Program-made: the position numbers and the translations under genes
IMG/VR virus record: IMGVR_UViG_2690316318_000023
Coordinates: 1 to 27,264 of that record
DNA from: a virus
Taxonomy: Duplodnaviria; Heunggongvirae; Uroviricota; Caudoviricetes
Reading direction: 5' to 3' (one strand)
DNA length: 27,264 nucleotides
Notes under the pieces: model-generated
Seen by the model: only the letters and a program-made list of their open reading frames with translations
The model's database searches: none
Told to the model about the DNA's origin: nothing
Shown here: positions 2,306 through 16,438 of the stretch, piece after piece
Numbering within the stretch: position 1 is the first letter of the stretch
How the letters are laid out: each line of letters begins with the position of its first letter

Positions 2306-3067
2306 TAAATATTTCAAAATGAGTCCCCCTGCTACGGATAGTCCTTGGCTTAAAAAATACCGTCACCGCTGAATACCCACACAGTGCCCCCACCCATTTA
2401 GTTGGCATAATGTATTCAACTGATTGAGGAATGGCTCCTCTTTTACTACCAAACGGCCATCGCTGGCGCATTCATCCGCTGGTAGTGGAACTTTTTAGCC
2501 ATCAGCGCCTCCCTAAATCAATTCCTTACATCGCTCAAATTCAACAACCATTGTTGTAATCTTGCTGCTATCAAGTAACGCCTTTGTATTACGCCGACTT
2601 TATCTTGCCAGCAACATACGCCATCCGATAATTTCGATGTTACGCGCGCATACTTGTCGCAAAATATCAGACAAAAGCCAGATTCAGAACGTCGTGATAA
2701 CCACCAGCACAACAGAGAGGTCATGTAACGCGATTTATCACATCAGATACATGTGATTGGTGTACCAGCATAAAACATCGTCATAGCGCGTCCTGTGCGC
2801 ATATACGCCGATAATCAACACATCACCACCACTCTGTCTCGTGTAGAGAACAGTTTCATGGTATCCCCCGCCATCGTGTGCGTACTGGTCGGACGCAGTT
2901 GCAAAAAATTTTGCAACTGATACCCCTCGCGCGCGTACTGGTCACGAAATTGGTGTTTTGCTGTGGCAGTGATATCAGAAAAATCTTCCTGTTTCACATA
3001 AAGCGGATATGCGCGTACTGTAACGGCCCCATCAACGGGGATCGGATTTGAAATCCCGACCCAAGCT

Positions 3068-3487
3068 ATGTACCAAATGCCATGTCTTGGATATATGATG
3101 ATTGCCATTCTAAACAAAGCTAAAGGGAGGGTTGGTGTGAATGCTCAGGCTGTCATCATGGTTTTCCTTGGTCTGATTGTCGCAAAACTATATCCAGACT
3201 GGTGGAAAGGGGCATTAGCAACTGTCGCCATCTATTTGCTTTTATCCGTCGTTAAGCGATCGTTCGTTAAGACCGTAAATCAAGCAAAACGTTTCTCATT
3301 TAAGAATTTAATAAACTATATTACTGGGCTTATTTTTTGCCTTTCAATTTTGATCGCCTCAGCTTTTTTGCCCGTATCAATAGCTAATTTTTTTGGCGCA
3401 CCATATGAGGTAGGTTATCTATTCTCTGTTTTTTGCCTTGTTCTTTCCCTTCTTTACCTATGGATGAGAGCAAAGAACAAAAATTAG
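3068..3487 (+). CDS. Small multi-pass membrane protein (139 aa as drawn; probable start GTG 3137, about 116 aa)
   Basis: GGGAGGG Shine-Dalgarno sits 6 nt before the in-frame GTG at 3137. Four hydrophobic segments. Convergent with the 701-aa gene. Confidence 0.55.
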   Translation: MYQMPCLGYMMIAILNKAKGRVGVNAQAVIMVFLGLIVAKLYPDWWKGALATVAIYLLLSVVKRSFVKTVNQAKRFSFKNLINYITGLIFCLSILIASAFLPVSIANFFGAPYEVGYLFSVFCLVLSLLYLWMRAKNKN

Positions 3488-3500
3488 CCATCCATGGCTA
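3485..3500. terminator. Short hairpin (TAGCCA-TCCA-TGGCTA) between convergent genes; T-run follows on the minus strand
   Basis: Palindrome read directly. Flanked by an A-run on plus (ATTTTTGTTC on the minus strand), consistent with termination of the minus-strand three-gene operon. The stem is short, so confidence is low. Confidence 0.3.
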
Positions 3501-3505
3501 ACCAG

Positions 3506-5611
3506 TTATTGAGCTTCTTTTTGTGATGCCTGTGCGACTCTGGTGAGCGATTGTGTGACCGTACTGATCGCTCTGTCATATGCTGTGCTACCTTTTGGCG
3601 TATTTGCCAGACGTAACAAGGCATTTCGTATAACAGGGCTTTCGTATGCCTTCGCTGCTCCGCCTACGGCACCAGCAGCAGGAACAACAAACGCAGCCGT
3701 TTTTAGCATCCCCGCTAATACTGCTGCGTTTATGATGCCACCACCAACTAACAATCCATAAAGCTGCTGACCATTTAAGTTTTGAACGTTCGCTTTTGCC
3801 GCGTGTCTTGTATCGTTGAGGTATTTAATAACGCCGTCCAGTTCCTTTCCATGTACGCCTTTAAAGAAAGTTGCTGATTGCTTCCTGTTCCGGTGTAACG
3901 CATTAATAAACTTCTCAACACTGATATTTCCAGACGGATCAGTCGCCTTATCTACAGCATTCTGAACTATGGCTGCTCGTGCGTTTTGCCTACCATTGTC
4001 ATCCAGAAGCCTGTAAAGCTGAGAACGTTCTGATGGGCTTTGGCTAAAAACGAGTTTTGTTACATCCTCAGGCGTGGCCTTGCCGCTGGCTATTGCCTTT
4101 TGAACGCGCGTTCTTCCCATCATGTCATTGAATTTAGACCATGAGCGATCAACCCTTGCCATATTAATGGCTTCGTCTGCTCCAAGATTTTTGGCTACGG
4201 CTTTTTTCATATCCGCCGTATATGCCTTGTAGATAATATCGCTGGCTTTCTGGAGCGTATCTTTATCAACAGTGTCAGATGACGCCATAAATCGCTTTCG
4301 AAGATCGGTTCTGTTTTCCCTCGCCAGACGCAGGTCATTTGGTCCGCTGGTGATATCGTCTTTAAATTGCTGCAAGACTTTTACCGCGGCTCTATCCTGA
4401 GATTTGCCCGGGCGGCTTAACACGGCAATCTGATTGTCGATAGCTTTTACCGTGTTTGAGAGATCGACAGGGGTATCCCCCATAGCGTCAATTATGCGGT
4501 TATATCGCTTTCCTGCTGCCTCAATGAATTTTTGTTGCCCTTTAGTCGCAGATTCATAAAGCTGTTTATCAGAAATGCCACCCAGACCATCGCTAAATGT
4601 TCTGACTAAATTTTCTCGTGCTTGTTGTTGATTCAGCCGATTCTTACCGGTTCCAAAAAAAGGAACTCTTTCGCCTAATGTCTGAGCCTGACTCTGCATA
4701 AAGGTTTTATCTTTCAGCATGTCACTGGTCATTAACGGCAGATTTCTTTCCGATGCAAAGTCGACAGCAGCCTTTGCTTCAGGCGACATATCACCACGAA
4801 CAGCCCTCGAAACCGCACTCGCTGTATTTTCCAGCCCCTTACCAATACCACCAATGCCAGCAGAAATTACCGTTTGTAACGGATCAATATCTTCTCCACC
4901 AGCAAGGCTGGTGGCTCCCTGTAGTGCTAAATCTGTAGCTGCTGATTTTCCTATGGCACCAAGCACCGTTCCAGCCCTGCCCGCTGGTGTAAACGCCAAC
5001 GCATTAGCAAGAAACGAGGTCAGGTCTTGCGGTGATAAACCCGGCTTGTTCAGGGCATAATCACCTGATGGCAGAGAAACGATAGTATTCCCCTTCTCAT
5101 CCTGCCTTAATGTCGCCCCCATTCCCTGAAGAATCTTTTCCTGAGACGCGTCAGAGCCGAAAAGTTGAGACCATCCAGCCTTTAGGGCATCCATGCTTAG
5201 TGAGTTCAATTCTGGGGCAGAGGCGACATTTTGCAGTCTCTCCATCTCTGGAGTCATTCGGCTTTCGCCTGTTATAGCATCGCGCATCGCAGCCCCAAGA
5301 CTGGCTCCCTGTTCTGCTGAACGCTCAAGCCCCTCTCTTTGCTGAGTAGCTAACTTTGCATACCCTGACGCAAGAGAATTATCAGATGATGTATGTTGAA
5401 TATTTTGAGTTGCTGATTGGGATCGGTCTATTTCATTCGTTGATGGTAGTGGATAGGCAGCATAAAAAGCCTGCTTAGCCTGCTCTACACTTTCTCCGGC
5501 TTGCGGGGCCACGACTTCATTGAAGTATTGCTCCTGAGCCTGCGCTTTTTGTTCTGGTGCTAACGCCTGATACTGTGGAGAGGCGATAACATCTTTCCAT
5601 GCTTTAGCCAT
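3506..5611 (-). CDS. Hypothetical protein (701 aa), distal gene of the three-gene cargo operon; Ala/Gln/Ser-rich with a C-terminal hydrophobic Gly/Ala-rich segment
   Basis: ATG at 5611-5609 overlaps the upstream stop (TAATG) and is preceded by GGGGTGA. No Walker A or nuclease motif seen by eye. C-terminal LLVGGGIINAAVLAGMLKTAAFVVPAAGAVGGAA looks membrane-associating. Confidence 0.8.
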   Translation of the reverse strand: MAKAWKDVIASPQYQALAPEQKAQAQEQYFNEVVAPQAGESVEQAKQAFYAAYPLPSTNEIDRSQSATQNIQHTSSDNSLASGYAKLATQQREGLERSAEQGASLGAAMRDAITGESRMTPEMERLQNVASAPELNSLSMDALKAGWSQLFGSDASQEKILQGMGATLRQDEKGNTIVSLPSGDYALNKPGLSPQDLTSFLANALAFTPAGRAGTVLGAIGKSAATDLALQGATSLAGGEDIDPLQTVISAGIGGIGKGLENTASAVSRAVRGDMSPEAKAAVDFASERNLPLMTSDMLKDKTFMQSQAQTLGERVPFFGTGKNRLNQQQARENLVRTFSDGLGGISDKQLYESATKGQQKFIEAAGKRYNRIIDAMGDTPVDLSNTVKAIDNQIAVLSRPGKSQDRAAVKVLQQFKDDITSGPNDLRLARENRTDLRKRFMASSDTVDKDTLQKASDIIYKAYTADMKKAVAKNLGADEAINMARVDRSWSKFNDMMGRTRVQKAIASGKATPEDVTKLVFSQSPSERSQLYRLLDDNGRQNARAAIVQNAVDKATDPSGNISVEKFINALHRNRKQSATFFKGVHGKELDGVIKYLNDTRHAAKANVQNLNGQQLYGLLVGGGIINAAVLAGMLKTAAFVVPAAGAVGGAAKAYESPVIRNALLRLANTPKGSTAYDRAISTVTQSLTRVAQASQKEAQ

Positions 5612-7077
5612 TAATCACCCCATAGTGAAGAAAAGTTACTGCTGGCTGCTGGCTGTGATACCTGCTCAGATTGCGGCAATGTCTGCGACGAAGAAGCAGT
5701 TCCTCTGTCAACTGCTGAAATAACCCGCAAAGCATCATAAGTTCGACCAGAAGCAGCTTTCAGCGAATTGAACTGGTTTTCCATCTTCCGGCGCTTGGTA
5801 TCAATGGTTTTTGTGGAATCACCAGGCTGAGGGAAATACATTTGATAATATTTGGACATTTCAGCTGGTAGGATAGATGCCCCTGTTTCCTGACGGAGTA
5901 TTGCCATTATTGCGTCATTAGCATTAACAACGTATTGCTGCTCTGCTGGGCTGAGCGTTAAGTTAGCCAGCGTCCCATTACCCAAAGCATTATTAATGAT
6001 CGCCACTCGCTGTGGGCTAAGCTGGTCTTTCAGTGTATCTATTGAATCAAGAGCATCCCTAACCCTGTATGCAAATCCAGCAGCTTTTTTAGCCCCTTCT
6101 GGCGACTTTTCCATGATCTTTTGGGCTGTTGGCAAAGCTATTGGACGAAACCCATCTCCAGATATTGGCTGGTTTAGTTTTCCCTGCTCTTCACTTCCGT
6201 CTGTGTAGTATTTTGTGACAGTGCCATCATCGTTTTCTCTAACACTCATTAATTTTTTGGCGTTTGTATTAATTCCAGCCGCTGCCGCAAATGCCGCCGC
6301 CCCCTCTGGATCCGCCTTTAACATTTGCGCGTACTGATTGTAATTCTGCATTGCTGCTGTTGGTGCATATGCTGACGTTAACGCATTTGCTCGGCTAATA
6401 TCCTGCCCTCTCGCCTGAAGTGCTTCGCCAGCCTGATTGCTGCGGATTGTCTCTGCCAACTTGCCACGCTCAATATCCCGACCTTCCATTTGATCTTTGA
6501 TATCGAAATACTTCTCATGACCGAGAGAAAACAGCGCCAGATTACCTGCGAAATGCTGGAAGCCCTGCGGGTCATTAACCTGCATTTCAGCAATAGTTTC
6601 TGGAGGGATACCTAAACGACGCATCTCCTGCTCATTATCCATCATGAACCTGCCAAATGCGCCCTGACCAAGCGATGAGGCTACCTGTGCTTTGAGCGCC
6701 AGATTGCCATAATCATCCCTTTGAGCATCATCGACATAACTCATCCCTTTACGGACTTCCTCAAACTCTTCTGGGAATGCTGTAATAAGATTACGCATCT
6801 GCTCCCTGTCACCGGACGCATAAGCATCTGCATAACCTTTCTGGAATGCCGCTTTACGCTCCTGCTGTTGCTGCTGCTTATAAATATCAGCAACGCCAGC
6901 CAGACCACGAAGACCTGTCAGAGCAACGTTATTTGCACCTGAGCGAGCCAGTTCATTGTTTTCGCGGATCAGACCAAGCGTTGCGTTAATGTCGCTTGCC
7001 TTTGGCGCATTCTCGTTTTGCGCACCAATGCCAGCCAGAAAACCACCAGAATTAATACCCTGTTGCCACGTAGCCAT
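5611..7077 (-). CDS. Hypothetical protein (about 488 aa from ATG 7077; ORF open to GTG 7089), middle gene of the three-gene cargo operon
   Basis: Long ORF, translationally coupled to the 701-aa gene. Gln/Ala-rich (QQQQQERKAAFQ), no recognisable enzymatic motif. Confidence 0.8.
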   Translation of the reverse strand: MATWQQGINSGGFLAGIGAQNENAPKASDINATLGLIRENNELARSGANNVALTGLRGLAGVADIYKQQQQQERKAAFQKGYADAYASGDREQMRNLITAFPEEFEEVRKGMSYVDDAQRDDYGNLALKAQVASSLGQGAFGRFMMDNEQEMRRLGIPPETIAEMQVNDPQGFQHFAGNLALFSLGHEKYFDIKDQMEGRDIERGKLAETIRSNQAGEALQARGQDISRANALTSAYAPTAAMQNYNQYAQMLKADPEGAAAFAAAAGINTNAKKLMSVRENDDGTVTKYYTDGSEEQGKLNQPISGDGFRPIALPTAQKIMEKSPEGAKKAAGFAYRVRDALDSIDTLKDQLSPQRVAIINNALGNGTLANLTLSPAEQQYVVNANDAIMAILRQETGASILPAEMSKYYQMYFPQPGDSTKTIDTKRRKMENQFNSLKAASGRTYDALRVISAVDRGTASSSQTLPQSEQVSQPAASSNFSSLWGD

Positions 7078-7081
7078 TGAT

Positions 7082-7255
7082 TTACCCACGTCCAGTTAAA
7101 GTGTAAGCCAGCGCCTTATCCATTAATCCCCGAGCAATTTCATGGATCGTTGGCGCAACTCCTACCTCTGATTTTTTACGCTGCTCCTCCTGAATTTTCT
7201 TTATCGCTTCCATTTGCTTCTCACTTATCAATACTGGCTTTACTGAAATAGCCAT
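7082..7255 (-). CDS. Small hypothetical protein (57 aa), first gene of the three-gene cargo operon; possible small DNA-binding or regulatory protein
   Basis: ATG at 7255 preceded by AAGGGGG (4-5 nt spacer); its stop lies 2 nt before the next gene's ATG. Translation: MAISVKPVLISEKQMEAIKKIQEEQRKKSEVGVAPTIHEIARGLMDKALAYTLTGRG. Confidence 0.5.
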   Translation of the reverse strand: MAISVKPVLISEKQMEAIKKIQEEQRKKSEVGVAPTIHEIARGLMDKALAYTLTGRG

Positions 7256-7288
7256 AACGCCCCCTTAGAACTGTATAAAACAACAGTC

Positions 7289-7294
7289 ATTATA
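7289..7294 (-). promoter_or_regulatory. Candidate -10 hexamer (TATAAT on the minus strand) for the three-gene cargo operon
   Basis: Perfect TATAAT about 35 nt upstream of the 57-aa ORF start. No good -35 at 17-bp spacing, so it may be activator-dependent. Confidence 0.3.
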
Positions 7295-7350
7295 GTTTCA
7301 TAAAACGCAACATTCATCATTGTGATTGCAAAATATGAAACAAATAGCAC

Positions 7351-7383
7351 AAAAAAATGCCACCGCTCAGTAGCTGGTGGCAT
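7351..7383 (-). terminator. Rho-independent terminator (minus strand) downstream of the primase/iteron region, insulating the cargo operon
   Basis: Hairpin ATGCCACC(GCTcagtAGC, T bulge)GGTGGCAT with 8+3 bp stem; on the minus strand it is followed by a 7-nt U-run (plus-strand A-run 7351-7357). Confidence 0.55.
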
Positions 7384-7577
7384 CGTTCTGTGTGTCAGGT
7401 TTTGACAGGTTTTTTATGGACTCTAAAAACTATATTTATGGTGTCGCATTACTCTTCACGGCAGGCGCTTTTCAGTTCTGCCCTTGCTTCTGGCTCCATT
7501 GGTAATTTGATTCGCGATCAGCTATGCGGATGGTTTGCTGAACAGGCATAACAACTTCTCAGGGGCTGTTTTCTGAA

Positions 7578-7653
7578 CTACGAAAATTTCGTAGTGCTCA
7601 CTTTCAAAAACGTCACGCCCTTGTACACAGGATTTTACGAAAGTCTCGTAAAA
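7578..7653. promoter_or_regulatory. Two related palindromes (CTACGAAA-a-TTTCGTAG at 7578-7594; TTTTACGA-agtc-TCGTAAAA at 7634-7653), operator-like
   Basis: Both read directly; they share a TACGA/TCGTA inverted core. Located between the ori-like iterons and the terminator. Confidence 0.3.
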
Positions 7654-7689
7654 CACTCTCTGATGCCAGCCAGGTGTTGTGCGCATCAA

Positions 7690-7821
7690 TTCAGTCACAT
7701 TGTGTTGGTTCAAAATACCGTGTTGTTGGTTCGGTGTTGGTTCAATAAAAAGAATAAAATCCTTACAAAACAATACTCTTTACAAATTGAACCAACTGAA
7801 CCAACTGAACCAACACCTTTT
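7690..7821. repeat. Iteron array immediately downstream of the primase gene (ori-like); includes the right copy of the 46-bp perfect inverted repeat (7776-7821)
   Basis: Multiple TTGGTTCA/GAACCAAC copies. 7776-7821 (ctctttacaaattgaaccaactgaaccaactgaaccaacacctttt) is the exact reverse complement of 312-357. Confidence 0.8.
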
Positions 7822-7839
7822 CTACGCACATGAAGAAGC

Positions 7840-10596
7840 TCATTCTTCGGATGAGTTATAATCTCCTGGCTGGTAATTGAGTACATAAACGTTTATTTGT
7901 CGTCCCTGAATACGTGGTGATTTTCTTTGGTATCCACGACCGCTGTTTGGTGGGGTTAGCATCCCGGCTTTTTTCAACACTTCAGCAAACTGTTTTGCGT
8001 TGAAACCACATGCGATCTCCTTTTCAAATGTGGCCGGGAATGTGTAGAAAATCATTGGGCTTTCGTCATGTTCTCCACGCTGACGGTATCCGGCTAAATC
8101 TTTGATGGGCAAATCTGCCGGGCTGTATGGAAATGGTGCAAAACGGCTAAGCCCATAGGCATTAAGAAATGCCTCCGTTTGTTCAATAATCTGCTGATGC
8201 TCTTTGTTACCTGTGCCGAACTCGCGCAACCATGCGTTATAGCTGTGCTGTATCGCATCACGGCATGTCTGAGCATCCCAGCCTGTTACAACCTCGCCTA
8301 ACAGCAATGCGGCCTCCAGAATGGCAAATCGCGCGGCTACACGGTGAACCTGCTCACCATAATCGGATGGGATCAGGCTTCTCCATCTGCTTTCGCAGTC
8401 ACGAACAGTTTTAATAGCCTGTTGCTGGTGGTCTGCCAGCCATTTAATCCACTCACGCCCGGCTGCGCCGTGGTGATGCTGGTAAGCGTCTTTCAGTGCG
8501 TCTGCGTGCTGTTTTCCGTTCTGGTAATCGTGAAAGCGTACTGCTTTACTCAACGGAATATTCAGCAGTCGCACCAGTTGCCCGGCTTTGGTTTTTCGCC
8601 CGGAAGTAGCGATAAATGTTTCTAAATCCATTTCTCCGGTGCTGATTGCCACTGTACGCCAGCGTTTTAGATCCCGGTTTCCACCATCTTTAGCGCCTTG
8701 CAGTTTCCCTACACCGTTAAATAACGCATAGGCAGACTGTGAAACACTGACAGGATCAGCGCCCTGACCAACTTCATCAAGCGGCATTAATCCGTCATTG
8801 TGGGCGGCGGCTTCATTTGCCAGCCCCAGCGCGGTTCCGTACCACGTCAGCCGCAGTAAATCAGGGTTGCCGTATAAGCTGCTCGCCACGTTTGCCGTGG
8901 TGGTCTTACCTGCGCTCGACTGCTCATAGAAATGAATACCGAACCCGTCAGCACCCACCAGCCCAATCAATGGCGCTGCCAGTGCTGCGCCGATCCCGGT
9001 CATCATTGAATAGTTACCAAAGGCCAGACGCGCCACGTTATCACGCCAGCTTTTCGCGCTCCCTGAGACGGTATATCCGGCTGCGGCTGAGCTTCTCCCG
9101 CTGAACAGCACAGGATTTTCAGGTGTTCCGATGATTTCCCCATCAGACATGATGTACGCTCCGCATTGCCAGCCAGTGGCATGAGCAACACGCCACAATT
9201 CACGAGAGCCACTGCGTTGTAGCCAGTCTGCCAGTATTGCTCTGAGGCTGCTTTTGGTCGTGACATTTACCCCACCAGCTTTAAGTGTGCGCCATCCTTC
9301 ACGTTCACCAATATCAGCCAGTGGAATGGCAGCGGTTGTCGGCGTTTCAGAACCAAACGACAGCCAGCGAAGAATGAGATACTGGTCTTTATCGTCTCTG
9401 CCAGTACCGATAACGCTTAAAGGAGAACATAACCAGCTTTCGTTATTGATGATTTCTCCACTCTGGCTGTCAGCTCTCGGAGATACCCAATAAATACCAT
9501 CCTCGCGGCTTTCTATTCTTGGTTTCAGTGGGTCGGTATCCATAACCTTAAAATCGCTTCCCTCAATGGTCTGTGGCTCCTGTTTCACGCCATTACCCTG
9601 TGGTTGGTACATTGACTTATTGAACGCTTCTGTGGCGCATTTAATGCCGTGTTTTTGGTGGTAATCATTCCAGTCTGCTTTGTGATCTGTCGGGGGTAAT
9701 GCCACCCATCCAGAAACAGATAAAGCTGCTTTTTCTGCTGCTATTCTCCCCGTGTTTTGTCTTCCTTCGCTGTGGTCGTTATCCGCAGCAATGATGATTT
9801 GTGCTGAAGGAAATTTATCCCGCAGTACCTGGGCGACATATAACAGGTTCCCGGCATCAATCGCCGCCACTGTCAGCGCTTCTGAACGAATTAAATGGGC
9901 AGATAATGCCGTTGCCAGCCCTTCTGCGATTAAGATGCTCTGTGTTGTTTCTGGTGCGTTTATGGCGTGATATGCCCCTCGCTTTGCTGAACCTGTCAGG
10001 AGTCTTTTTTCACCATGTGAGGTAATAGTCTGTGCTGCTGTGACTGCGCCGGATTTATCCACCAGCGCCAGCAACAGAGATCCATCGGGCAACACGGGGA
10101 ATGTAAAATCACCTACCCCTTTCGCAACCAGATAATCAGATTTGCCGTTTACAGCCTTTCTGCGCATGTCATCAAACTGACGGGAAAACGTATCCCGTCT
10201 TTGTTGTTCGTCCTTCTCTGCCCTTTTCAGGCGCTCCTGTTCGCGTCGCTGGCGCTCGGTTTCCAGTTGTTCCCGTTTCTGGCTGGTGGCTTCTGGTGTT
10301 TCCGTTGTCCGGTAATCAATACCCAGAACATCAGCGGCAAGAAGCGCCGCCTCTGTTGTGTCGCAGTTATTTACGCGTTTAATTAAATCCAGCCCATCAC
10401 CAGCGCCGCACTGATTACAGATGAAGCTACCGCGCCCGTTGTCATCGAACCGGAATCGATCTTTGCCCCCACATGCAGGGCAGGGAGCATGACGGCGCGG
10501 AGAGTCAGGGACATTTATGTTCAGGCAGCCCAGCACATGAGGCCAGTTGTTTTCAGACGCACTGATAACCTGACGGATAAGATCAATGTTTCGCAT
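7840..10596 (-). CDS. P4 alpha-like DNA primase/helicase (918 aa): N-terminal zinc-ribbon, TOPRIM, C-terminal P-loop NTPase
   Basis: CPACGG...CNQCG zinc-binding motif near the N-terminus; TOPRIM-like IIIAADNDHSEG; P-loop-like SSAGKTT. ATG preceded by GGGGG Shine-Dalgarno. Confidence 0.9.
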   Translation of the reverse strand: MRNIDLIRQVISASENNWPHVLGCLNINVPDSPRRHAPCPACGGKDRFRFDDNGRGSFICNQCGAGDGLDLIKRVNNCDTTEAALLAADVLGIDYRTTETPEATSQKREQLETERQRREQERLKRAEKDEQQRRDTFSRQFDDMRRKAVNGKSDYLVAKGVGDFTFPVLPDGSLLLALVDKSGAVTAAQTITSHGEKRLLTGSAKRGAYHAINAPETTQSILIAEGLATALSAHLIRSEALTVAAIDAGNLLYVAQVLRDKFPSAQIIIAADNDHSEGRQNTGRIAAEKAALSVSGWVALPPTDHKADWNDYHQKHGIKCATEAFNKSMYQPQGNGVKQEPQTIEGSDFKVMDTDPLKPRIESREDGIYWVSPRADSQSGEIINNESWLCSPLSVIGTGRDDKDQYLILRWLSFGSETPTTAAIPLADIGEREGWRTLKAGGVNVTTKSSLRAILADWLQRSGSRELWRVAHATGWQCGAYIMSDGEIIGTPENPVLFSGRSSAAAGYTVSGSAKSWRDNVARLAFGNYSMMTGIGAALAAPLIGLVGADGFGIHFYEQSSAGKTTTANVASSLYGNPDLLRLTWYGTALGLANEAAAHNDGLMPLDEVGQGADPVSVSQSAYALFNGVGKLQGAKDGGNRDLKRWRTVAISTGEMDLETFIATSGRKTKAGQLVRLLNIPLSKAVRFHDYQNGKQHADALKDAYQHHHGAAGREWIKWLADHQQQAIKTVRDCESRWRSLIPSDYGEQVHRVAARFAILEAALLLGEVVTGWDAQTCRDAIQHSYNAWLREFGTGNKEHQQIIEQTEAFLNAYGLSRFAPFPYSPADLPIKDLAGYRQRGEHDESPMIFYTFPATFEKEIACGFNAKQFAEVLKKAGMLTPPNSGRGYQRKSPRIQGRQINVYVLNYQPGDYNSSEE

Positions 10597-10608
10597 TCTG
10601 GCCCCCGT

Positions 10609-11211
10609 TTAGTGCGTCACTGGTGCTTCTGGGATGCCGTTTTCGTTTAGTTCGGCAATAAAGCTGTTGTGAAGATCGGCAAGCACTTCTCGCCCAAACG
10701 AAGTGAGTGTTCCCTGTTCGACATCGAACATGTTGCTGTAAAAAATGATGGCATTCTTTGTTCCGACATCAACACCATATTTCTCGATCATTGCGCCCTC
10801 AATGTTGTTTGCCATAGCGAGGCGCTCTGCTACTGGATACAGCGGCATGGCGACGATGCCATTGGAATAAACAGAAACCACGGAATGATTGCCACTGTCA
10901 TCAATAATGCTGACGGTGCCGTTTTCCTTTCTCATTTCATTGATGAATGCTGTTGCTATCAGCCAGCGCCACATAATCACGTGATGCTGTGATGTGTAAT
11001 CGAAATATCCCTGGTTGCCGCCACTGGCAATAGCGAGATGTATAAACATGCCTTCATCTGGTTTATCGTCATAATCCCCGGCATCCAGACGATTTACGGC
11101 ATCAATATATGAGACGGCCTCAACGCGTTCTGTCATGCCATCGTTGCTGCGGTACATGATGTTTACGCCGTCAGGCGTTGCTTCTGCATGGAAGGTTAAG
11201 AAATTATTCAT
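10609..11211 (-). CDS. Hypothetical protein (about 200 aa from ATG 11211), immediately upstream of the primase
   Basis: ORF extends to 11316 in the track, but the ATG at 11211 overlaps the upstream stop (ATGAATAA) and is the likely start. No recognisable motif. Confidence 0.6.
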   Translation of the reverse strand: MNNFLTFHAEATPDGVNIMYRSNDGMTERVEAVSYIDAVNRLDAGDYDDKPDEGMFIHLAIASGGNQGYFDYTSQHHVIMWRWLIATAFINEMRKENGTVSIIDDSGNHSVVSVYSNGIVAMPLYPVAERLAMANNIEGAMIEKYGVDVGTKNAIIFYSNMFDVEQGTLTSFGREVLADLHNSFIAELNENGIPEAPVTH

Positions 11212-11425
11212 GTTTCGCCTCGCCTGAATGATTCTGTAACTCATATTTGCCCAACAATTCGTCCGCTTCCTGAATAGCTTCTGGTACGCCATTGAGCAGT
11301 GACATAACCGCGCCAATCATTAACTTGTCTCTGTTGCTGGGGCTGGCCCCTTCAAGCCAGAACCCTAAAACAGTCTGAACCTGTTCGATGCGACATTGCG
11401 CTTCAATGAGCTGGATGTTGGTCAT
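11204..11425 (-). CDS. Small hypothetical protein (73 aa)
   Basis: ATG preceded by GGAGAG; overlaps neighbours in operon fashion. Confidence 0.55.
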   Translation of the reverse strand: MTNIQLIEAQCRIEQVQTVLGFWLEGASPSNRDKLMIGAVMSLLNGVPEAIQEADELLGKYELQNHSGEAKHE

Positions 11426-11685
11426 TTCGCACTCTCCACATCGATTAAACTGATATCTATCAGGGAGGTAACTTTTTGTAGCCAGCTATTGATTACTGTC
11501 GCCTGTTCCCCTCCCACCGAGGGAACAATCTCATTCATCACATGAACCAGACCTGTGCGCGCTCTGGTAAGCCGTTCAGTCGCGCAATCTGCGAGAGTGA
11601 ATGTGTCTGGATATGGCTCTTCTCTCCCCAGCAATGATTCAATTTCCAGCTCACACGGATGACGATAAATTAAGTTGATATTCAT
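11422..11685 (-). CDS. Small hypothetical protein (87 aa)
   Basis: ATG preceded by GGGGG; start overlaps the upstream stop (ATGA). Confidence 0.55.
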   Translation of the reverse strand: MNINLIYRHPCELEIESLLGREEPYPDTFTLADCATERLTRARTGLVHVMNEIVPSVGGEQATVINSWLQKVTSLIDISLIDVESAK

Positions 11686-11876
11686 TTTTCACCCCCAAGA
11701 ATTACCAGCTCTGCACGGGCATCGTTAACCAAAGATGAGCACGCTTTAATCGCATCCACGACATCAGCAGCGTCCATTTCTTCAGCCGAAAGACTGACAG
11801 CAACCAGGACAGCCGCTACTTGCTCAATTAATTGAAGTGCTGACGTAAGGCGAGGGGTATTAATTGAGTTATTCAT
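11682..11876 (-). CDS. Small hypothetical protein (64 aa from ATG 11876)
   Basis: GGGGG Shine-Dalgarno 6 nt before the ATG at 11876. The track ORF extends to 11933 but has no ribosome-binding site there. Confidence 0.45.
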   Translation of the reverse strand: MNNSINTPRLTSALQLIEQVAAVLVAVSLSAEEMDAADVVDAIKACSSLVNDARAELVILGGEK

Positions 11877-12936
11877 TGGTTGCCCCCGTTTTTCCTGGCA
11901 TTTGTCCACCTTCCAGCAGGAAATGAACGTCACGAACGGCGAGATCCAATATCGCGAGTAACGCCTTCAGCCTTTCGTCTCGTGAGGGAGAGTTGCTCAC
12001 CAGAATGTCGTTAATCACTTCTGTCAGTGTGATGATCTGGCTTGTGCGTTCGAGGGGATCCATATGCACATCGTAGGTTTTAATCATGTGCCACCTCCAT
12101 GCGGATACGACCAGCAAAAAAGCAGACGTGATCGCGCACCAGAGAACGGCGAGCATCGCGTTCAGACTCGGCAGCAATATGATGAATTTTGGCGGTAATT
12201 GTCGGGCAATCGCGGCGAACTGCGGCGATAATCCAGATAAATTGCGGTTTTTGGGTAGGGGTAGTAGCCAGCATGTGGCAGCCTCCTTCAGATAGCAGGT
12301 TACGCTACCACCGGAAACGCCAATTTCGCTGGTGGTAGCCCAGACAGGGTTGGCGTAACCGGCTCTGAAGGATACCGGCGCTTCCGAAGAAGCCCCCGCC
12401 TGAGCCACCATTGATTGACAAAGGCGCTGGATTATACACCAACGCCCAAAAAATGGGTGAGTCAGACCTACGACATAAAAAAAGACGCTCGGCGCGTCAT
12501 ATGTCGCCTTCAGAATTTTCAGGACGCCAATCCCGGCACCCGTTTTATGAGGTGCCTTATAACCATAAACCGTGTTGCCGCATAACGGCAAGCTCTTTTT
12601 TATGGACTCCGAAAACTCAGTATTGGAAGCACCAGATGCACAATACATCGCGCTCATTTCGTTAACGTCGCGCGTATGGACGAAGGTTTTTGTGGAGTCA
12701 CTACGCGAGCAGAGAAAGCCATCTACGACCAGAAATTCTCTGGCGCAGCCGCTGACCTTCTCAACGCTAACACCATCGACCGTAATTTCTGACATAGTTA
12801 AGGCATCCGCTCCTACCACCAGAAAATGATAAACTTTGCTTGTATCTGCTGTATTAATGCCAGACTTTGCTGTCATATTGCTGGATTTTGGTGACATACC
12901 AGCCAGTGAAAATATCTTCTTCTGGACGGTTAGCAT
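11869..12936 (-). CDS. ORF of uncertain structure (355 codons open); N-terminal part looks like a real protein, C-terminal part overlaps alternative small genes
   Basis: ATG at 12936 has a GGAGG Shine-Dalgarno. The frame is open to 11869, but strong GGAGG-ATG sites also occur at 12274 (other frame, 64 aa) and 12087 (same frame, 72 aa), so the real gene boundaries are unclear. Confidence 0.35.
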
Positions 12937-13112
12937 TTGTTAACCTCCGCGAACTCCTTCATGAAGCGCGCCAGCGGTTGTACGCATGGCGATTGATACC
13001 CGTCGCGATAAAACGTCACTCGGTTGTGAGACACGCTTTCGACAGTAACGAGTGCTCCGTGGGCATCTTTGTAGCGTTTTTGAGGTTGTGGTGTTCCTGT
13101 TGGCTTAGACAT
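12930..13112 (-). CDS. Small hypothetical protein (about 60 aa from ATG 13112)
   Basis: GGAGG Shine-Dalgarno 6 nt upstream of ATG 13112, which overlaps the end of the upstream gene. Confidence 0.45.
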   Translation of the reverse strand: MSKPTGTPQPQKRYKDAHGALVTVESVSHNRVTFYRDGYQSPCVQPLARFMKEFAEVNKC

Positions 13113-13938
13113 TGACCGCCTCCAGACGCTTGGCGAGCCAGCGTTGCGACAGGCGGGTGAGTTCTCCTTTGCGCTGCTCATATTCCATGCCCATATCAAT
13201 TAACGTGATATTGGTGCTTTCGAGATATGAGAGGTGCTCAAGCTGTTCTGCGTTCATATGGTCGCGAGGTTCGCCAGAATAGCCATTTATCCGCGCCCAC
13301 TGCTTAGCAGTTAGCCCACCAAGAACGATACGAGAAATCATATTGCTCTCGTTTGTGTAGTGGTGTTGCTGCGTCGTTTTCCCCTGCTCGGCACGGGCCA
13401 TATTCAGCGCATCGCACATTGGCTTAAAGTTGTTTGCGGCACTGATACGGGCTTTTAGCTGGCGACGATAGCGGGCGGCGATTTCAGGCACGCTACGCTG
13501 TAATTCTTCCTCGCACTGGATGAAATAACGGCGGATAGCGCGACCCTGATCATTGCGTTCGATCATTGCCAGTTCTTTCGCCATTCCGACACTTAACAGA
13601 TAGTCTTTGCCGGGTCTGCCAGACTGCTTAATCTTGCTGTAAGCCGCGCCATTCGGGCTTTTCCCCAAATTTGGGGAAATTGTTTTATGGACTGAGTAAT
13701 CGTGCCCAATGGTGAAGTCATATTCAGAGATGCGATCAGTGATCCATGTAGAGAAGTCTTTTCCCACGCCCAACGCTTTGTGTAACGCTTTTGCGCTAAC
13801 AATATTGGTTTCACGCCCACCGATATGACCAGGAATAACCGGGACAATTGCGGCAAATTCATTACCGTTAATTGTGCTCAGAGAGGCGTTCAGATGAGGG
13901 GCGGCCTCAGAAATTAATCTGCTTTTTTCGATGTTCAT
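13105..13938 (-). CDS. Phage antirepressor-like protein (277 aa)
   Basis: GGAGA Shine-Dalgarno. The N-terminal region (DYLLSVGMAKELAMIERNDQGRAIRRYFIQCEEEL) resembles the antirepressor/Rha-type N-terminal domain of phage regulatory proteins; recalled, unverified. Confidence 0.7.
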   Translation of the reverse strand: MNIEKSRLISEAAPHLNASLSTINGNEFAAIVPVIPGHIGGRETNIVSAKALHKALGVGKDFSTWITDRISEYDFTIGHDYSVHKTISPNLGKSPNGAAYSKIKQSGRPGKDYLLSVGMAKELAMIERNDQGRAIRRYFIQCEEELQRSVPEIAARYRRQLKARISAANNFKPMCDALNMARAEQGKTTQQHHYTNESNMISRIVLGGLTAKQWARINGYSGEPRDHMNAEQLEHLSYLESTNITLIDMGMEYEQRKGELTRLSQRWLAKRLEAVNV

Positions 13939-13950
13939 TTTCAGTCTCCG

Positions 13951-14382
13951 TTAAGCGGCGTTAAACGCGTCCGGGTAGAGTTTCAGAATGTCGGCAATTT
14001 CCTGCTGAGAAAGTCCGTTGTGATCATTTATGTTCGCAAGATGGTTAATATGAGTGATCACTTTCAGAACATCACCACGGCAGGAGAAACGGTAGCGAAG
14101 GTGTGTTCCGATACCATCAGGATTCTTTTCGTCGATACGCTCCAGAGTGATTCCAAGCTGGCGTTCTAACTCTGTTGCATAGTTACGACCAGAAGACAGA
14201 CGGCAGTAGCGAAGAATGTCGTTTTCTGTCCATCCCTCTATACCAGTACGCAGCATATAGACTCGGGCACGATGCTTTTTCGGTGTGCGCTTTGGTGCTT
14301 GAAGGGATTTTGTAAGGGGCGTAATATCAGATACGCGAATATCTGAATTAGCCGCCTGTAATGGGCGGTTTTTCTTTTCCAT
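13951..14382 (-). CDS. Hypothetical protein (143 aa), basic N-terminus
   Basis: ATG overlaps the alpA stop (ATGA); no recognisable domain. Confidence 0.65.
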   Translation of the reverse strand: MEKKNRPLQAANSDIRVSDITPLTKSLQAPKRTPKKHRARVYMLRTGIEGWTENDILRYCRLSSGRNYATELERQLGITLERIDEKNPDGIGTHLRYRFSCRGDVLKVITHINHLANINDHNGLSQQEIADILKLYPDAFNAA

Positions 14383-14585
14383 CAGGCCACCTCGTCTCTA
14401 GATTCTAATATACACTTCTCAATCCATTCATCTATTTCAGACTCAACAAAAGCAATAGCCCGACTTCCAATTTTTACCTGTTTAGGGAACCTCCCCTGAC
14501 TAATAAGACGATAAATCCATGCTTTGCTATAACCAGTTCGCCTTTGAACTTCAGAGAGACGAATTAATGAATTGTAATTAGCCAT
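14382..14585 (-). CDS. alpA: AlpA-family phage regulatory protein / excisionase-like HTH (67 aa)
   Basis: Size, position next to int, and the motif ...RLSEVQRRTGYSKAWIYRLISQGRFPKQVKIGSRAIAFVESEIDEWI are typical of AlpA-type regulators. Confidence 0.85.
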   Translation of the reverse strand: MANYNSLIRLSEVQRRTGYSKAWIYRLISQGRFPKQVKIGSRAIAFVESEIDEWIEKCILESRDEVA

Positions 14586-15012
14586 TTATTAATATCCTGT
14601 ACTAATGACGCAATAACCCCCTCCTGCAACGAATGGCGAGAGTTTTATTTGCGTCAAATGTCGAATACGCCAAAGACCACAATATGAAAAACATATTGCG
14701 GTCTTTTATAAAAGATAGTCAGATTGTTTTGGTTTGTTTGCTCCACAAGGGTAGAGCTACCCTGCATTTCGGCAGGATCACGCTATTAGGCGTGACATCC
14801 AGTAGTTTTAAAGAACAATTGCGCTTTGTCAGCGCCAAAGCCTGTTAAAGAACATTCCGCTTTTCAGCAGCGTAGAAGGCTCAATACACCTTCGTTTATA
14901 AAAGAGCGATTGCCCTTCTCCAGGGCTAACTGTTAAATAGCAATCCTCTGTGAGTTTTTATCAATCTACTCCCCTATACTTTAGTAAACCTCTGTATACT
15001 TGTCCAGTTGTT

Positions 15013-16227
15013 TCATGCGTGTTTTTCAAACACCATATGCACCACATTTCCGCCATGCTCGAGAGAATCCATATAGTCGGCATACCATTGAAGCATCTCC
15101 CGCCTTCCATCCAGATATTGCGCATGGTTGTATGTGCCACGAATTGAGTTCTTATCAACGTGAGCGAGCTGCGTTTCTATCCACGCGGTGTTATAGCCCT
15201 GCTCATGCAAAATCGTACTCATAGTGTGCCGGAACCCATGACCAGTTACACGTCCAGCGTAGCCAATGCGCTTAAACACTTGGTTTATGCTGGCCTCACT
15301 CATTGTTTTCCTTGGATCATTGCGCCCGGGAAACATAAGAGGGTAATTGCCTGTTATTTCTCTAATCTTCCCAATAAGCGAAAGAGCCTGCTCAGACAAT
15401 GGCACAATATGAGGCCGCCGCATTTTCATACGTGAAGCGGGTATCTCCCAGAGAGCCTTGTTGAAATCAATTTCATCCCATAATGCGCCACGTAGTTCGC
15501 CAGTCCGCAAGCCTGTGATAATCAGTAGACGAGCCGCCATAACAACCAATGCGCTTCCTGAGTAACTGGACAATGCCTTGAAAAAATCAGGTAATTCTTT
15601 GGCTGTAAGGAAAGGGTAATGATTAGATTCATGGCCTTGCATCGCGCTAGTAAGGTCTGGTGCAGGGTTATACTCTGCGCGACCAGTGACTATTGCATAG
15701 CGGAAAACTTCCCCGCACCGCTGCCTCACTTTTTTGGCTTTTTCTGTAGCACCGCGCCCCTCGATGCGCCGCAGCACATTCAGAAGTTCAAGTGGTTTGA
15801 TTTCGGCGATTGGTTTTTTGCCAATGTAAGGGAACACATCTTTGTTGAAGGCTTCGAGGATGTCTGAAGCATAACCAGCAGACCATTTTTTTAATTTGCT
15901 GCTGTGCCACTCAAGGGCAATATCTTTGAAGGTGTTGTTTAACTGCGTTTCCCGGGCAATCTTTTCCTCTCGTTTCGCTTCCATCGGATCGATACCACCA
16001 GCGATACCTCTTTTCGCATCTTCACGTTTTGCCCGAGCATCGGCTAGAGTAACCTCAGGATACACACCTAGTGCCAATAGCTTCTCTTTACCAGCTACAC
16101 GATATTTAAGTCGCCAGTATTTACCTCCATTAGGTTTTACCAAGAGATACAAACCGCCACCATCGGCCAGCTTGTAAGCCTTCTCTTTTGGCTTGGCTGT
16201 GTCTATTTGACGGGCATTGAGTTTCAC
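15013..16227 (-). CDS. int: P4-type tyrosine site-specific integrase (404 aa)
   Basis: N-terminus MKLNARQIDTAKPKEKAYKLADGGGLYLLVKPNGGKYWRLKYR and C-terminal HGFRHT...LAH...Y catalytic region. GTG start with GGAGG upstream. Adjacent to the tRNA fragment. Confidence 0.95.
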   Translation of the reverse strand: MKLNARQIDTAKPKEKAYKLADGGGLYLLVKPNGGKYWRLKYRVAGKEKLLALGVYPEVTLADARAKREDAKRGIAGGIDPMEAKREEKIARETQLNNTFKDIALEWHSSKLKKWSAGYASDILEAFNKDVFPYIGKKPIAEIKPLELLNVLRRIEGRGATEKAKKVRQRCGEVFRYAIVTGRAEYNPAPDLTSAMQGHESNHYPFLTAKELPDFFKALSSYSGSALVVMAARLLIITGLRTGELRGALWDEIDFNKALWEIPASRMKMRRPHIVPLSEQALSLIGKIREITGNYPLMFPGRNDPRKTMSEASINQVFKRIGYAGRVTGHGFRHTMSTILHEQGYNTAWIETQLAHVDKNSIRGTYNHAQYLDGRREMLQWYADYMDSLEHGGNVVHMVFEKHA

Positions 16228-16291
16228 TTGGGGGTACCTCCACTAAACCGAACAGCAAATACCCCCATAAGTACCCCCATCTGACCGTAGA

Positions 16292-16375
16292 TTTTGAGGG
16301 ACTTTAGTAGACGTCAAAAGACGAACGGGGCTTTAATACGCGGATTATAAGGGGTTTTGAAAGACTTTAGTAGAC
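16292..16375. repeat. Pair of 21-bp direct repeats (TTTTGAnnGACTTTAGTAGAC) between int and the att core; candidate integrase arm-type sites
   Basis: Read directly at 16292-16312 and 16355-16375 (2 mismatches). Confidence 0.4.
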
Positions 16376-16392
16376 TTGGGGAGATGTTTGAA

Positions 16393-16438
16393 TGGTGCCG
16401 ATAATAGGAGTCGAACCTACGACCTTCGCATTACGAAT
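16393..16438 (-). pseudogene. tRNA-Thr 3' fragment (46 nt: anticodon loop through CCA end), att-core repeat beside the integrase; not an intact tRNA
   Basis: The minus strand reads ...TTCGTAATGCGAAGGTCGTAGGTTCGACTCCTATTATCGGCACCA (T-loop GGTTCGACTCC, acceptor stem, CCA), matching my recollection of E. coli thrW. The upstream sequence cannot form the 5' acceptor/D arm. Confidence 0.6.

Follow-up and report, generated by a model that had tools for sequence, protein, structure and literature searches.

Small inner-membrane proteins of a resident element, T4 Imm and HK97 gp15 among them, exclude further phages by stopping DNA transfer across the inner membrane. In phage P22, the inner-membrane protein SieA blocks the gp16/gp20 DNA conduit and is alone capable of blocking DNA injection by P22-like phages, with escape mutations located in the C-terminal parts of gp16 and gp20 (PMC10883804). 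A recognisable sieA is present in 22 of 66 sequenced P22-like phages, and the SieA types are ~25% identical to each other (PMC10883804, Leavitt et al. 2024). A satellite with ejection-protein genes, EcCIMP1, has also been described. It is a phage-inducible chromosomal island found in E. coli MP1; the P22-like phage Kapi1 acts as its helper, inducing and transducing it, and the island is reported to add to superinfection immunity against Kapi1, with no known defence system detected (PMC11773190, Pick et al. 2025).

Here we analyse a small membrane-protein gene in 27,264 nucleotides of viral DNA (Caudoviricetes; IMG/VR record IMGVR_UViG_2690316318_000023), referred to as the window throughout, and compare it with these systems. 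Membrane exclusion genes that follow gene 16 are already known; what is new is an unnamed family, unrelated to SieA in sequence, which also resides in phage satellites. The features on which the comparison rests are as follows.

1-282: PerC gene
2598-3062, no strand assigned: conserved non-coding or pseudogenic block of 465 nt, present in EcCIMP1-like islands and one P22-like prophage contig
3068-3136, plus strand: in-frame upstream extension with ATG codons at 3068, 3095 and 3098, in island-type upstream sequence only
3125-3130, plus strand: Shine-Dalgarno sequence GGGAGG, 6-nt spacer to GTG 3137, the first conserved position in all contexts
3137-3487, plus strand: coding sequence of the small membrane protein, GTG start, TAG stop at 3485-3487, 116 codons, 351 nt
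3482-3503, no strand assigned: hairpin between the convergent stop codons, with palindrome TTAGCCATccATGGCTAA at 3484-3501
3506-5611, minus strand: ejection (DNA transfer) protein of the P22 gp16 type, 701 aa, constant neighbour of the small gene in convergent orientation
5611-7089, minus strand: P22 gp20-type ejection protein (PF16928, Inj_translocase), part of the same exchanged cassette
16400-16409: EcCIMP1 att core TCCTATTATC

Start site, constraint and distribution of the small gene

The open frame runs on the plus strand from 3068 to 3487 and offers in-frame starts at ATG 3068, ATG 3095/3098 and GTG 3137, with ATG 3098 being the RefSeq start in near-identical E. coli loci (129 aa). Seven genomic contexts were used to align the start region: two island lineages, one of them that of the window, the prophages of APEC O1 and Yersinia, an Edwardsiella island and two viral contigs. 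Similarity sets in abruptly at GGAGG-N6-GTG and the sequence 5' of this point is unrelated, the extension 3068-3136 not being conserved in the prophage, Edwardsiella or Yersinia contexts. Since similarity and start signal alike begin at the ribosome-binding site and position 3137 across contexts, 3068-3136 is most likely a non-coding 5' leader, despite the RefSeq start at 3098. All close copies (22/22) have GTG at the equivalent of 3137, a length of 351 nt and zero indels. Relatives at 36-38% identity, recovered from Serratia fonticola, Pluralibacter gergoviae and metagenomes, are 115-120 aa long and start at the same residue (MN.Q...), with an ATG behind GAGG/GGAGG-like purine-rich sites. These alignments uphold the start at GTG 3137, the 116-aa product and the Shine-Dalgarno sequence that had been proposed in a preceding, sequence-only reading of this DNA.

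Conservation in related sequences, which that reading had made the touchstone of its proposal, was found, and the gene is under purifying selection. Relative to the Yersinia copy, dN/dS is 0.12-0.16 at a dS of ~1.2-1.4, which is saturating, and 54 of the 89 nucleotide differences lie in third codon positions. At intermediate distances dN/dS is 0.3-0.5, and among very close island copies it is near 1, a value obtained from just 7-10 substitutions. The GC content of the gene is 38.2% versus 47.5% for the adjacent genes, a low value of the kind typical of morons.

The small gene was detected in 229 of 5426 complete E. coli genomes (4.2%), with a full-length match in 227 of them; carriers include O111 EHEC, APEC O1 and the ABU 83972 lineage, and the family is annotated everywhere as hypothetical. 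At 50% identity it comprises seven clusters among 1.84 billion representative proteins, and three fringe variants came to light when 5.8 billion proteins were searched with a profile. It is absent from all 50,697 sequenced phage genomes searched, and a scan of GTDB representative genomes gave no confirmed locus. Literature searches with the RefSeq protein accessions of the small protein, and for satellites with ejection-protein genes, returned nothing beyond the EcCIMP1 paper.

Truncated or fused copies exist in some genomes (P0015, P0017-P0019). In one of these, P0019 of some E. coli genomes, the first ~56 codons (3137-3300) are fused to the frame of window ORF 7357-7551, which implies a deletion that has removed gp16 and gp20.

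Upstream of the gene, the block 2598-3062 is conserved at 94-96% in the islands, in EcCIMP1 and in viral contig L013. Copies of it differ by frame-breaking indels of 1-2 nt and hold no annotated CDS or library match, congruent with the decayed DNA described here earlier. Six-frame pieces of 2306-3136 and a frameshift-corrected conceptual protein of 180 aa gave no Pfam match and only noise in PHROGs; for the block, neither an Rfam family nor a phage DNA match was obtained. A minus-strand ORF of 100 aa at 2815-3117 was considered as a remnant of a tailspike head-binding domain (gene 9) or of mnt/arc/ant, and was dismissed as tblastn with four tailspikes and the immI proteins returned nothing. 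The block may represent a pseudogene, the leader or promoter of the slot gene, or a recombination joint. A consensus promoter scan 5' of the small gene, in island and prophage contexts, revealed no convincing sigma-70 site near the start; the sole match (10/12, at 2605-2632) lies ~500 nt upstream. The promoter is presumably located within the block or just after it.

The decayed upstream DNA, the outcome of the promoter scan and the truncated or fused copies would all suit a non-functional leftover frame in decaying island DNA. This explanation is nevertheless very improbable, considering that the close copies are uniformly intact and equal in length, that nearly all E. coli matches are full-length, that dN/dS is low even at saturating dS, and that the start signal is kept across genera. 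We conclude that 3137-3487 is almost certainly a functional gene, encoding a small polytopic inner-membrane protein of the accessory slot after gene 16.

Predicted topology and database searches of the 116-residue protein

Hydropathy analysis reveals four hydrophobic segments in the 116-aa protein. AlphaFold2, run twice with alignments of 7 and 12 sequences, also gives four helices, at low confidence (pLDDT 57.6 and 58.9), comprising residues 3-18, 22-48/50, 55-85 and 90-114/115. Hydropathy and the low-confidence models thus agree with the four-helix membrane character assigned by the sequence-only reading. In nucleotide coordinates the predicted helices are as follows.

~3143-3190, plus strand: predicted helix, residues 3-18
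~3200-3280, plus strand: predicted helix, residues 22-48
~3299-3391, plus strand: predicted helix, residues 55-85
~3404-3478, plus strand: predicted helix, residues 90-114

Basic residues are found in the loop 40-57 (six) and in the C-terminal tail (three). According to the positive-inside rule, basic segments are cytoplasmic, and the distribution of these residues therefore suggests that both termini and the central basic loop 40-57 face the cytoplasm. The loops YPDWWKG (19-25) and GAPYEVGY (87-94) would then be periplasmic, and the protein is probably located in the inner membrane. Neither loop varies within the close family, and all 12 aligned family members keep K-L-Y-P.

Scans of the small protein against Pfam, PHROGs, NCBIfam, PADLOC and PDB sequences returned nothing above noise. 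No family member reaches a Pfam gathering score, the best matches being DUF2070 (E 0.012) and Phage_holin_3_6 (E 0.063); the local Pfam-A copy is without PF26849 (SieA) and PF26808 (P22 gp16) and leaves P22 SieA and gp16 themselves unmatched, so that its negatives are void for these two families. A Foldseek search of the low-confidence model against viral models was uninformative (best E 1.2). Of the homology and structure comparison that had been suggested on the basis of the sequence, the sequence scans yielded no relative in the libraries.

Linkage to gene 16 and exchange between prophages and islands

In the window, the small gene runs tail to tail against the minus-strand pair 3506-5611 and 5611-7089, which agrees with the convergent layout described from the sequence, and its stop codon is 18 nt away from the facing one. 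A check of homologues elsewhere for a partner demonstrated that a convergent gp16-type neighbour is present in all loci with a downstream flank but one, down to 36% identity of the small protein, and that the stop-to-stop gap is 17-23 nt across lineages. The linked loci at 36-38% identity are from Serratia, Pluralibacter and metagenome contigs. A hairpin occupies the space between the stops, and its core AGCCATCCNTGGCT, stop codon included, is kept in the relatives at 36% identity. Because a T-run follows the palindrome on the minus strand, the hairpin at 3482-3503 looks like a terminator of the gp16/ejection-gene transcript.

The lone exception to the linkage is L026, a degraded island in O111 strains from which gp16 has been deleted; here the small gene is intact at 99.7% identity and adjoins ykgL. 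The convergent arrangement of the small gene and gp16 is ancestral and not a remnant, since intact P22-like prophages have the same layout, as does every lineage of the family. This speaks against the earlier suggestion that the gene survived the loss of a partner. The accompanying description of an orphan encoded on its own is correct as regards a monocistronic gene, and is not correct as regards a gene without neighbour, gene 16 being constantly next to it.

The small gene diverges in the same rank order as gp16, but faster: the small protein is at 36-38% identity where the C-terminal half of gp16 keeps 61-69%. Since the two are co-inherited as one cassette, and gp16 is membrane-active (PMC10883804), the small protein might serve the ejection proteins of its own element, either by protecting the producer membrane from newly made gp16 or by aiding gp16/gp20 handling. 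We consider such a role unlikely. The small gene and the late operon are transcribed towards each other, with the terminator-like hairpin in between, so that the small gene would not be co-transcribed with gp16; phages that bear gp16 of other types are without the small gene; and the O111 strains have kept it intact after gp16 was lost.

The family resides in two kinds of element, complete P22-like prophages and integrase/AlpA/primase islands that have the ejection-protein genes only. Island loci with the small gene comprise those of the window, E. coli, Edwardsiella, Serratia and Pluralibacter. Gene 9 is absent from the islands, and the gene 16 junction is identical to that of the prophages. 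The window itself holds an integrase, an AlpA-type regulator, an antirepressor, Ash, a TOPRIM-DUF927 primase, PerC and the att core, and its closest described relative is EcCIMP1. Positions 7107-16438, from the primase through the integrase gene to the att core, are 96-98% identical to EcCIMP1, and the PerC gene and the block 2598-3062 are also common to both. In contrast, similarity ends at 3062 and resumes at 7107, with another ejection-protein cassette between these points in EcCIMP1.

The gp16 in the cassette of the window is 100% identical to that of the P22-like viral contig L013 and shares 94% identity with its APEC O1 prophage counterpart over residues 69-701; the small gene and its L013 copy agree at 99.4% of their nucleotides and encode the same protein. 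As the cassette matches L013 and APEC O1 while the flanks match EcCIMP1, cassettes of small gene, gp16 and gp20 move between prophages and islands. The small gene would have reached the EcCIMP1-like island of the window through such a swap of all three genes.

After gp16, EcCIMP1 (L033) carries a 232-aa lipoprotein gene (MIKNLLLILSLSLLAGC...; L033 12632-13330, minus strand) on the strand of gp16, not the small gene, and the lipoprotein has no family match. The immunity phenotype of EcCIMP1 can thus not be credited to the small protein, because EcCIMP1 is without it; the lipoprotein is a candidate for the unexplained superinfection immunity against Kapi1.

Other parts of the window also differ between the islands. 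Positions 770-2305, between PerC and the conserved block, encode on the plus strand a 361-aa protein (phrog_7651) and a 145-aa membrane protein (phrog_8552), and the equivalent segment holds ImmA/IrrE and other genes in strain cq9 and an AlpA-like gene in EcCIMP1. This segment is a hotspot at which the cargo varies, and defence genes may be part of that cargo; PADLOC gave no match on 770-2305. ARAGORN found no tRNA in the window despite the att core at 16400-16409, and EcCIMP1 sits in tRNA-Thr, so that the island of the window appears to occupy another site or a rearranged one. Prophage tail-fibre genes lie to the right of the att core.

The sieA slot and a proposed exclusion of P22-like phages

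In P22, sieA (164 aa) lies between genes 16 and 9; it faces gene 16 in convergent orientation, 22 nt past the stop of the latter, and the type B sieA of prophage HS1 in E. coli HS has the same layout with a gap of 21 nt. The small gene occupies the equivalent position. The APEC O1 prophage at argW encodes terminase, portal, coat, gp4, gp10, gp26, gp14, gp7, gp20 and gp16, followed by the small gene, and beyond it the Arc/Ant genes and then the tailspike. A P22-like prophage of Yersinia enterocolitica has its homologue between gene 16 and the antirepressor and tailspike genes. In APEC O1 and Yersinia, the gene is thus located between homologues of P22 genes 16 and 9 and is transcribed towards gene 16, and several IMG/VR contigs have a similar P22-like prophage layout around it. 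By tblastn, SieA types A and B were absent from the 30 loci that carry the family or its N-terminal variants, and were found in P22 and HS1 only. As SieA never co-occurs with the family in the sampled loci, the slot holds, in this sample, either SieA or the small gene.

The likeness would extend to the proteins. SieA is a small polytopic membrane protein, with three helices in type A and four in types B and C, and the small protein is predicted to be one as well; types B and C and the small protein have in common four predicted helices and a basic, putatively cytoplasmic loop and tail, and in SieA as in the predicted topology of the small protein the basic loop precedes the last helical hairpin. 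Both genes also occur in P22-like prophages of Enterobacterales. The differences are that the small protein has 116 aa versus 164-212 for SieA, that it is without the ~50-residue cytoplasmic loop of SieA, and that its gene is also present in phage-inducible islands, where SieA has not been reported.

Comparison of the sequences revealed no relationship. BLASTP of the small protein against P22 SieA gave an E of 0.84, and hhalign a probability of 1.9%, which fell to 0.2% with wider alignments including type B. An HMM of SieA types A and B scored at most 11 bits on any family member versus 228-287 bits on its own members, and the reverse HMM, of the small-protein family, at most 3.3 bits on SieA. 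None of the 12 aligned members has the C-terminal SieA motif FxRYPxEAxxFNK, the C-terminus here being ...LLYLWMRAKNKN. In precomputed Pfam assignments, PF26849 is found on SieA relatives and on no member of the small-protein family. For comparison, a tblastn search with either of SieA types A and B recovers the other at E ~1e-19 to 1e-20. A faint correspondence of 'KRFSFKNLINYITG...' to 'EKFSPxxFENRITD...' of SieA, which came up repeatedly in BLASTP, hhalign and HMM output, was discarded as not significant, its register being lost with wider alignments. From these comparisons, the small protein is best described as occupying the same slot and belonging to the same kind of protein as SieA, with common ancestry not demonstrable. 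The proposal of immunity or superinfection exclusion in the sequence-only reading is thus backed by context, that is, by the sieA position and the constant absence of a SieA gene, and is not backed by sequence homology to SieA. The likeness to T4 Imm and HK97 gp15 is by analogy only: there is no sequence relationship, as judged from the lack of a Pfam or PHROG match, and their phage groups and gene contexts are unlike those of the small gene.

Considering position, gp16 linkage, exclusivity with SieA, topology and low GC, we favour the view, at a probability of roughly 0.5, that the small protein is a new superinfection-exclusion protein against P22-like phages, a fourth type unrelated in sequence to SieA, that blocks the gp20/gp16 conduit. 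The location of the SieA escape sites in gp16 and gp20 provides a functional rationale for an exclusion gene beside gene 16. The envelope proteins at this position in other elements and the superinfection immunity reported for the related EcCIMP1 also count in its favour; counting against it are the lack of homology to SieA, the negative promoter scan, the absence of the gene from EcCIMP1, the mosaic make-up of the region between genes 16 and 9, and the dN/dS near 1 among very close island copies. We infer the membrane location, the topology, expression in the lysogen and the exclusion function, and the proposed chain is as follows. The gene would belong to the accessory ('moron') region after gene 16 of P22-like phages and would be expressed from the resident prophage or island, placing the four-helix product in the inner membrane. 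There, the protein would interfere with the gp20/gp16 conduit across the periplasm and inner membrane, and DNA entry of incoming P22-like phages would be blocked, as has been shown experimentally for P22 SieA.

The small protein may also be another kind of membrane moron, which we regard as possible though less probable: an abortive-infection or membrane-depolarising effector similar to RexB, a protein that defends against unrelated phages, or one that contributes to host fitness, the spot beside gp16 being simply one that tolerates accessory genes. Mosaicism is indeed seen between genes 16 and 9, as P22 specialists would expect of morons at this site, and the region carries unrelated cargo such as YafO toxin/toxin-antitoxin and ClpP genes in APEC O1, with different genes in N7, L and EcCIMP1. 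The lack of homology to any exclusion protein is also compatible with a different function, and so is the free recombination in the slot to which the variants P0044 and P0046 attest by sharing only the first ~25 codons with the family. On the other hand, linkage to gp16 at 17-23 nt, together with the hairpin, persists down to 36% identity in prophages and islands, which is unexpected for loose cargo. Neither a rexA nor a gtrB/gtrC partner is present nearby, and no Pfam match above noise to the RexB, holin, GtrA or SMR families was obtained at E<=10.

Further observations concern what else occupies the slot. Other occupants are envelope proteins, with a one-helix protein in phage N7 and the lipoprotein in EcCIMP1. 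The slot variants P0044 (131 aa; L034 1695-2090) and P0046/P0045 (146/98 aa; L036 4505-4945 and L035 2335-2631) have the ribosome-binding site and the first ~25 codons (..IIILLGLIVAKLYP..) in common with the family and diverge completely thereafter, so that the mosaic junction is inside the first helix or the first loop.

An extension of the exclusion reading, for which we see rather little chance, is that the cassette works as a lock and key: the small protein would exclude P22-like phages with ejection proteins of other types, and gp16 and gp20 of its own cassette would pass the block. Diversifying pressure of this sort would fit the faster divergence of the small gene and the existence of variants that share only the first helix.

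If exclusion is indeed the function, the family fills the sieA slot in further prophages with an unrelated protein, which would point to proteins that block entry at the gp16/gp20 conduit having been invented more than once or having diverged to an extreme degree. EcCIMP1-like satellites swap whole cassettes of ejection proteins and slot gene with P22-like prophages, and the slot genes are concrete candidates to explain the satellite-mediated superinfection immunity reported in 2025 (PMC11773190). Should the lock-and-key arrangement hold, a satellite could shut out competitors, and even its helper, while securing its own entry, and cassette swapping between prophage and satellite would be a currency of their arms race.
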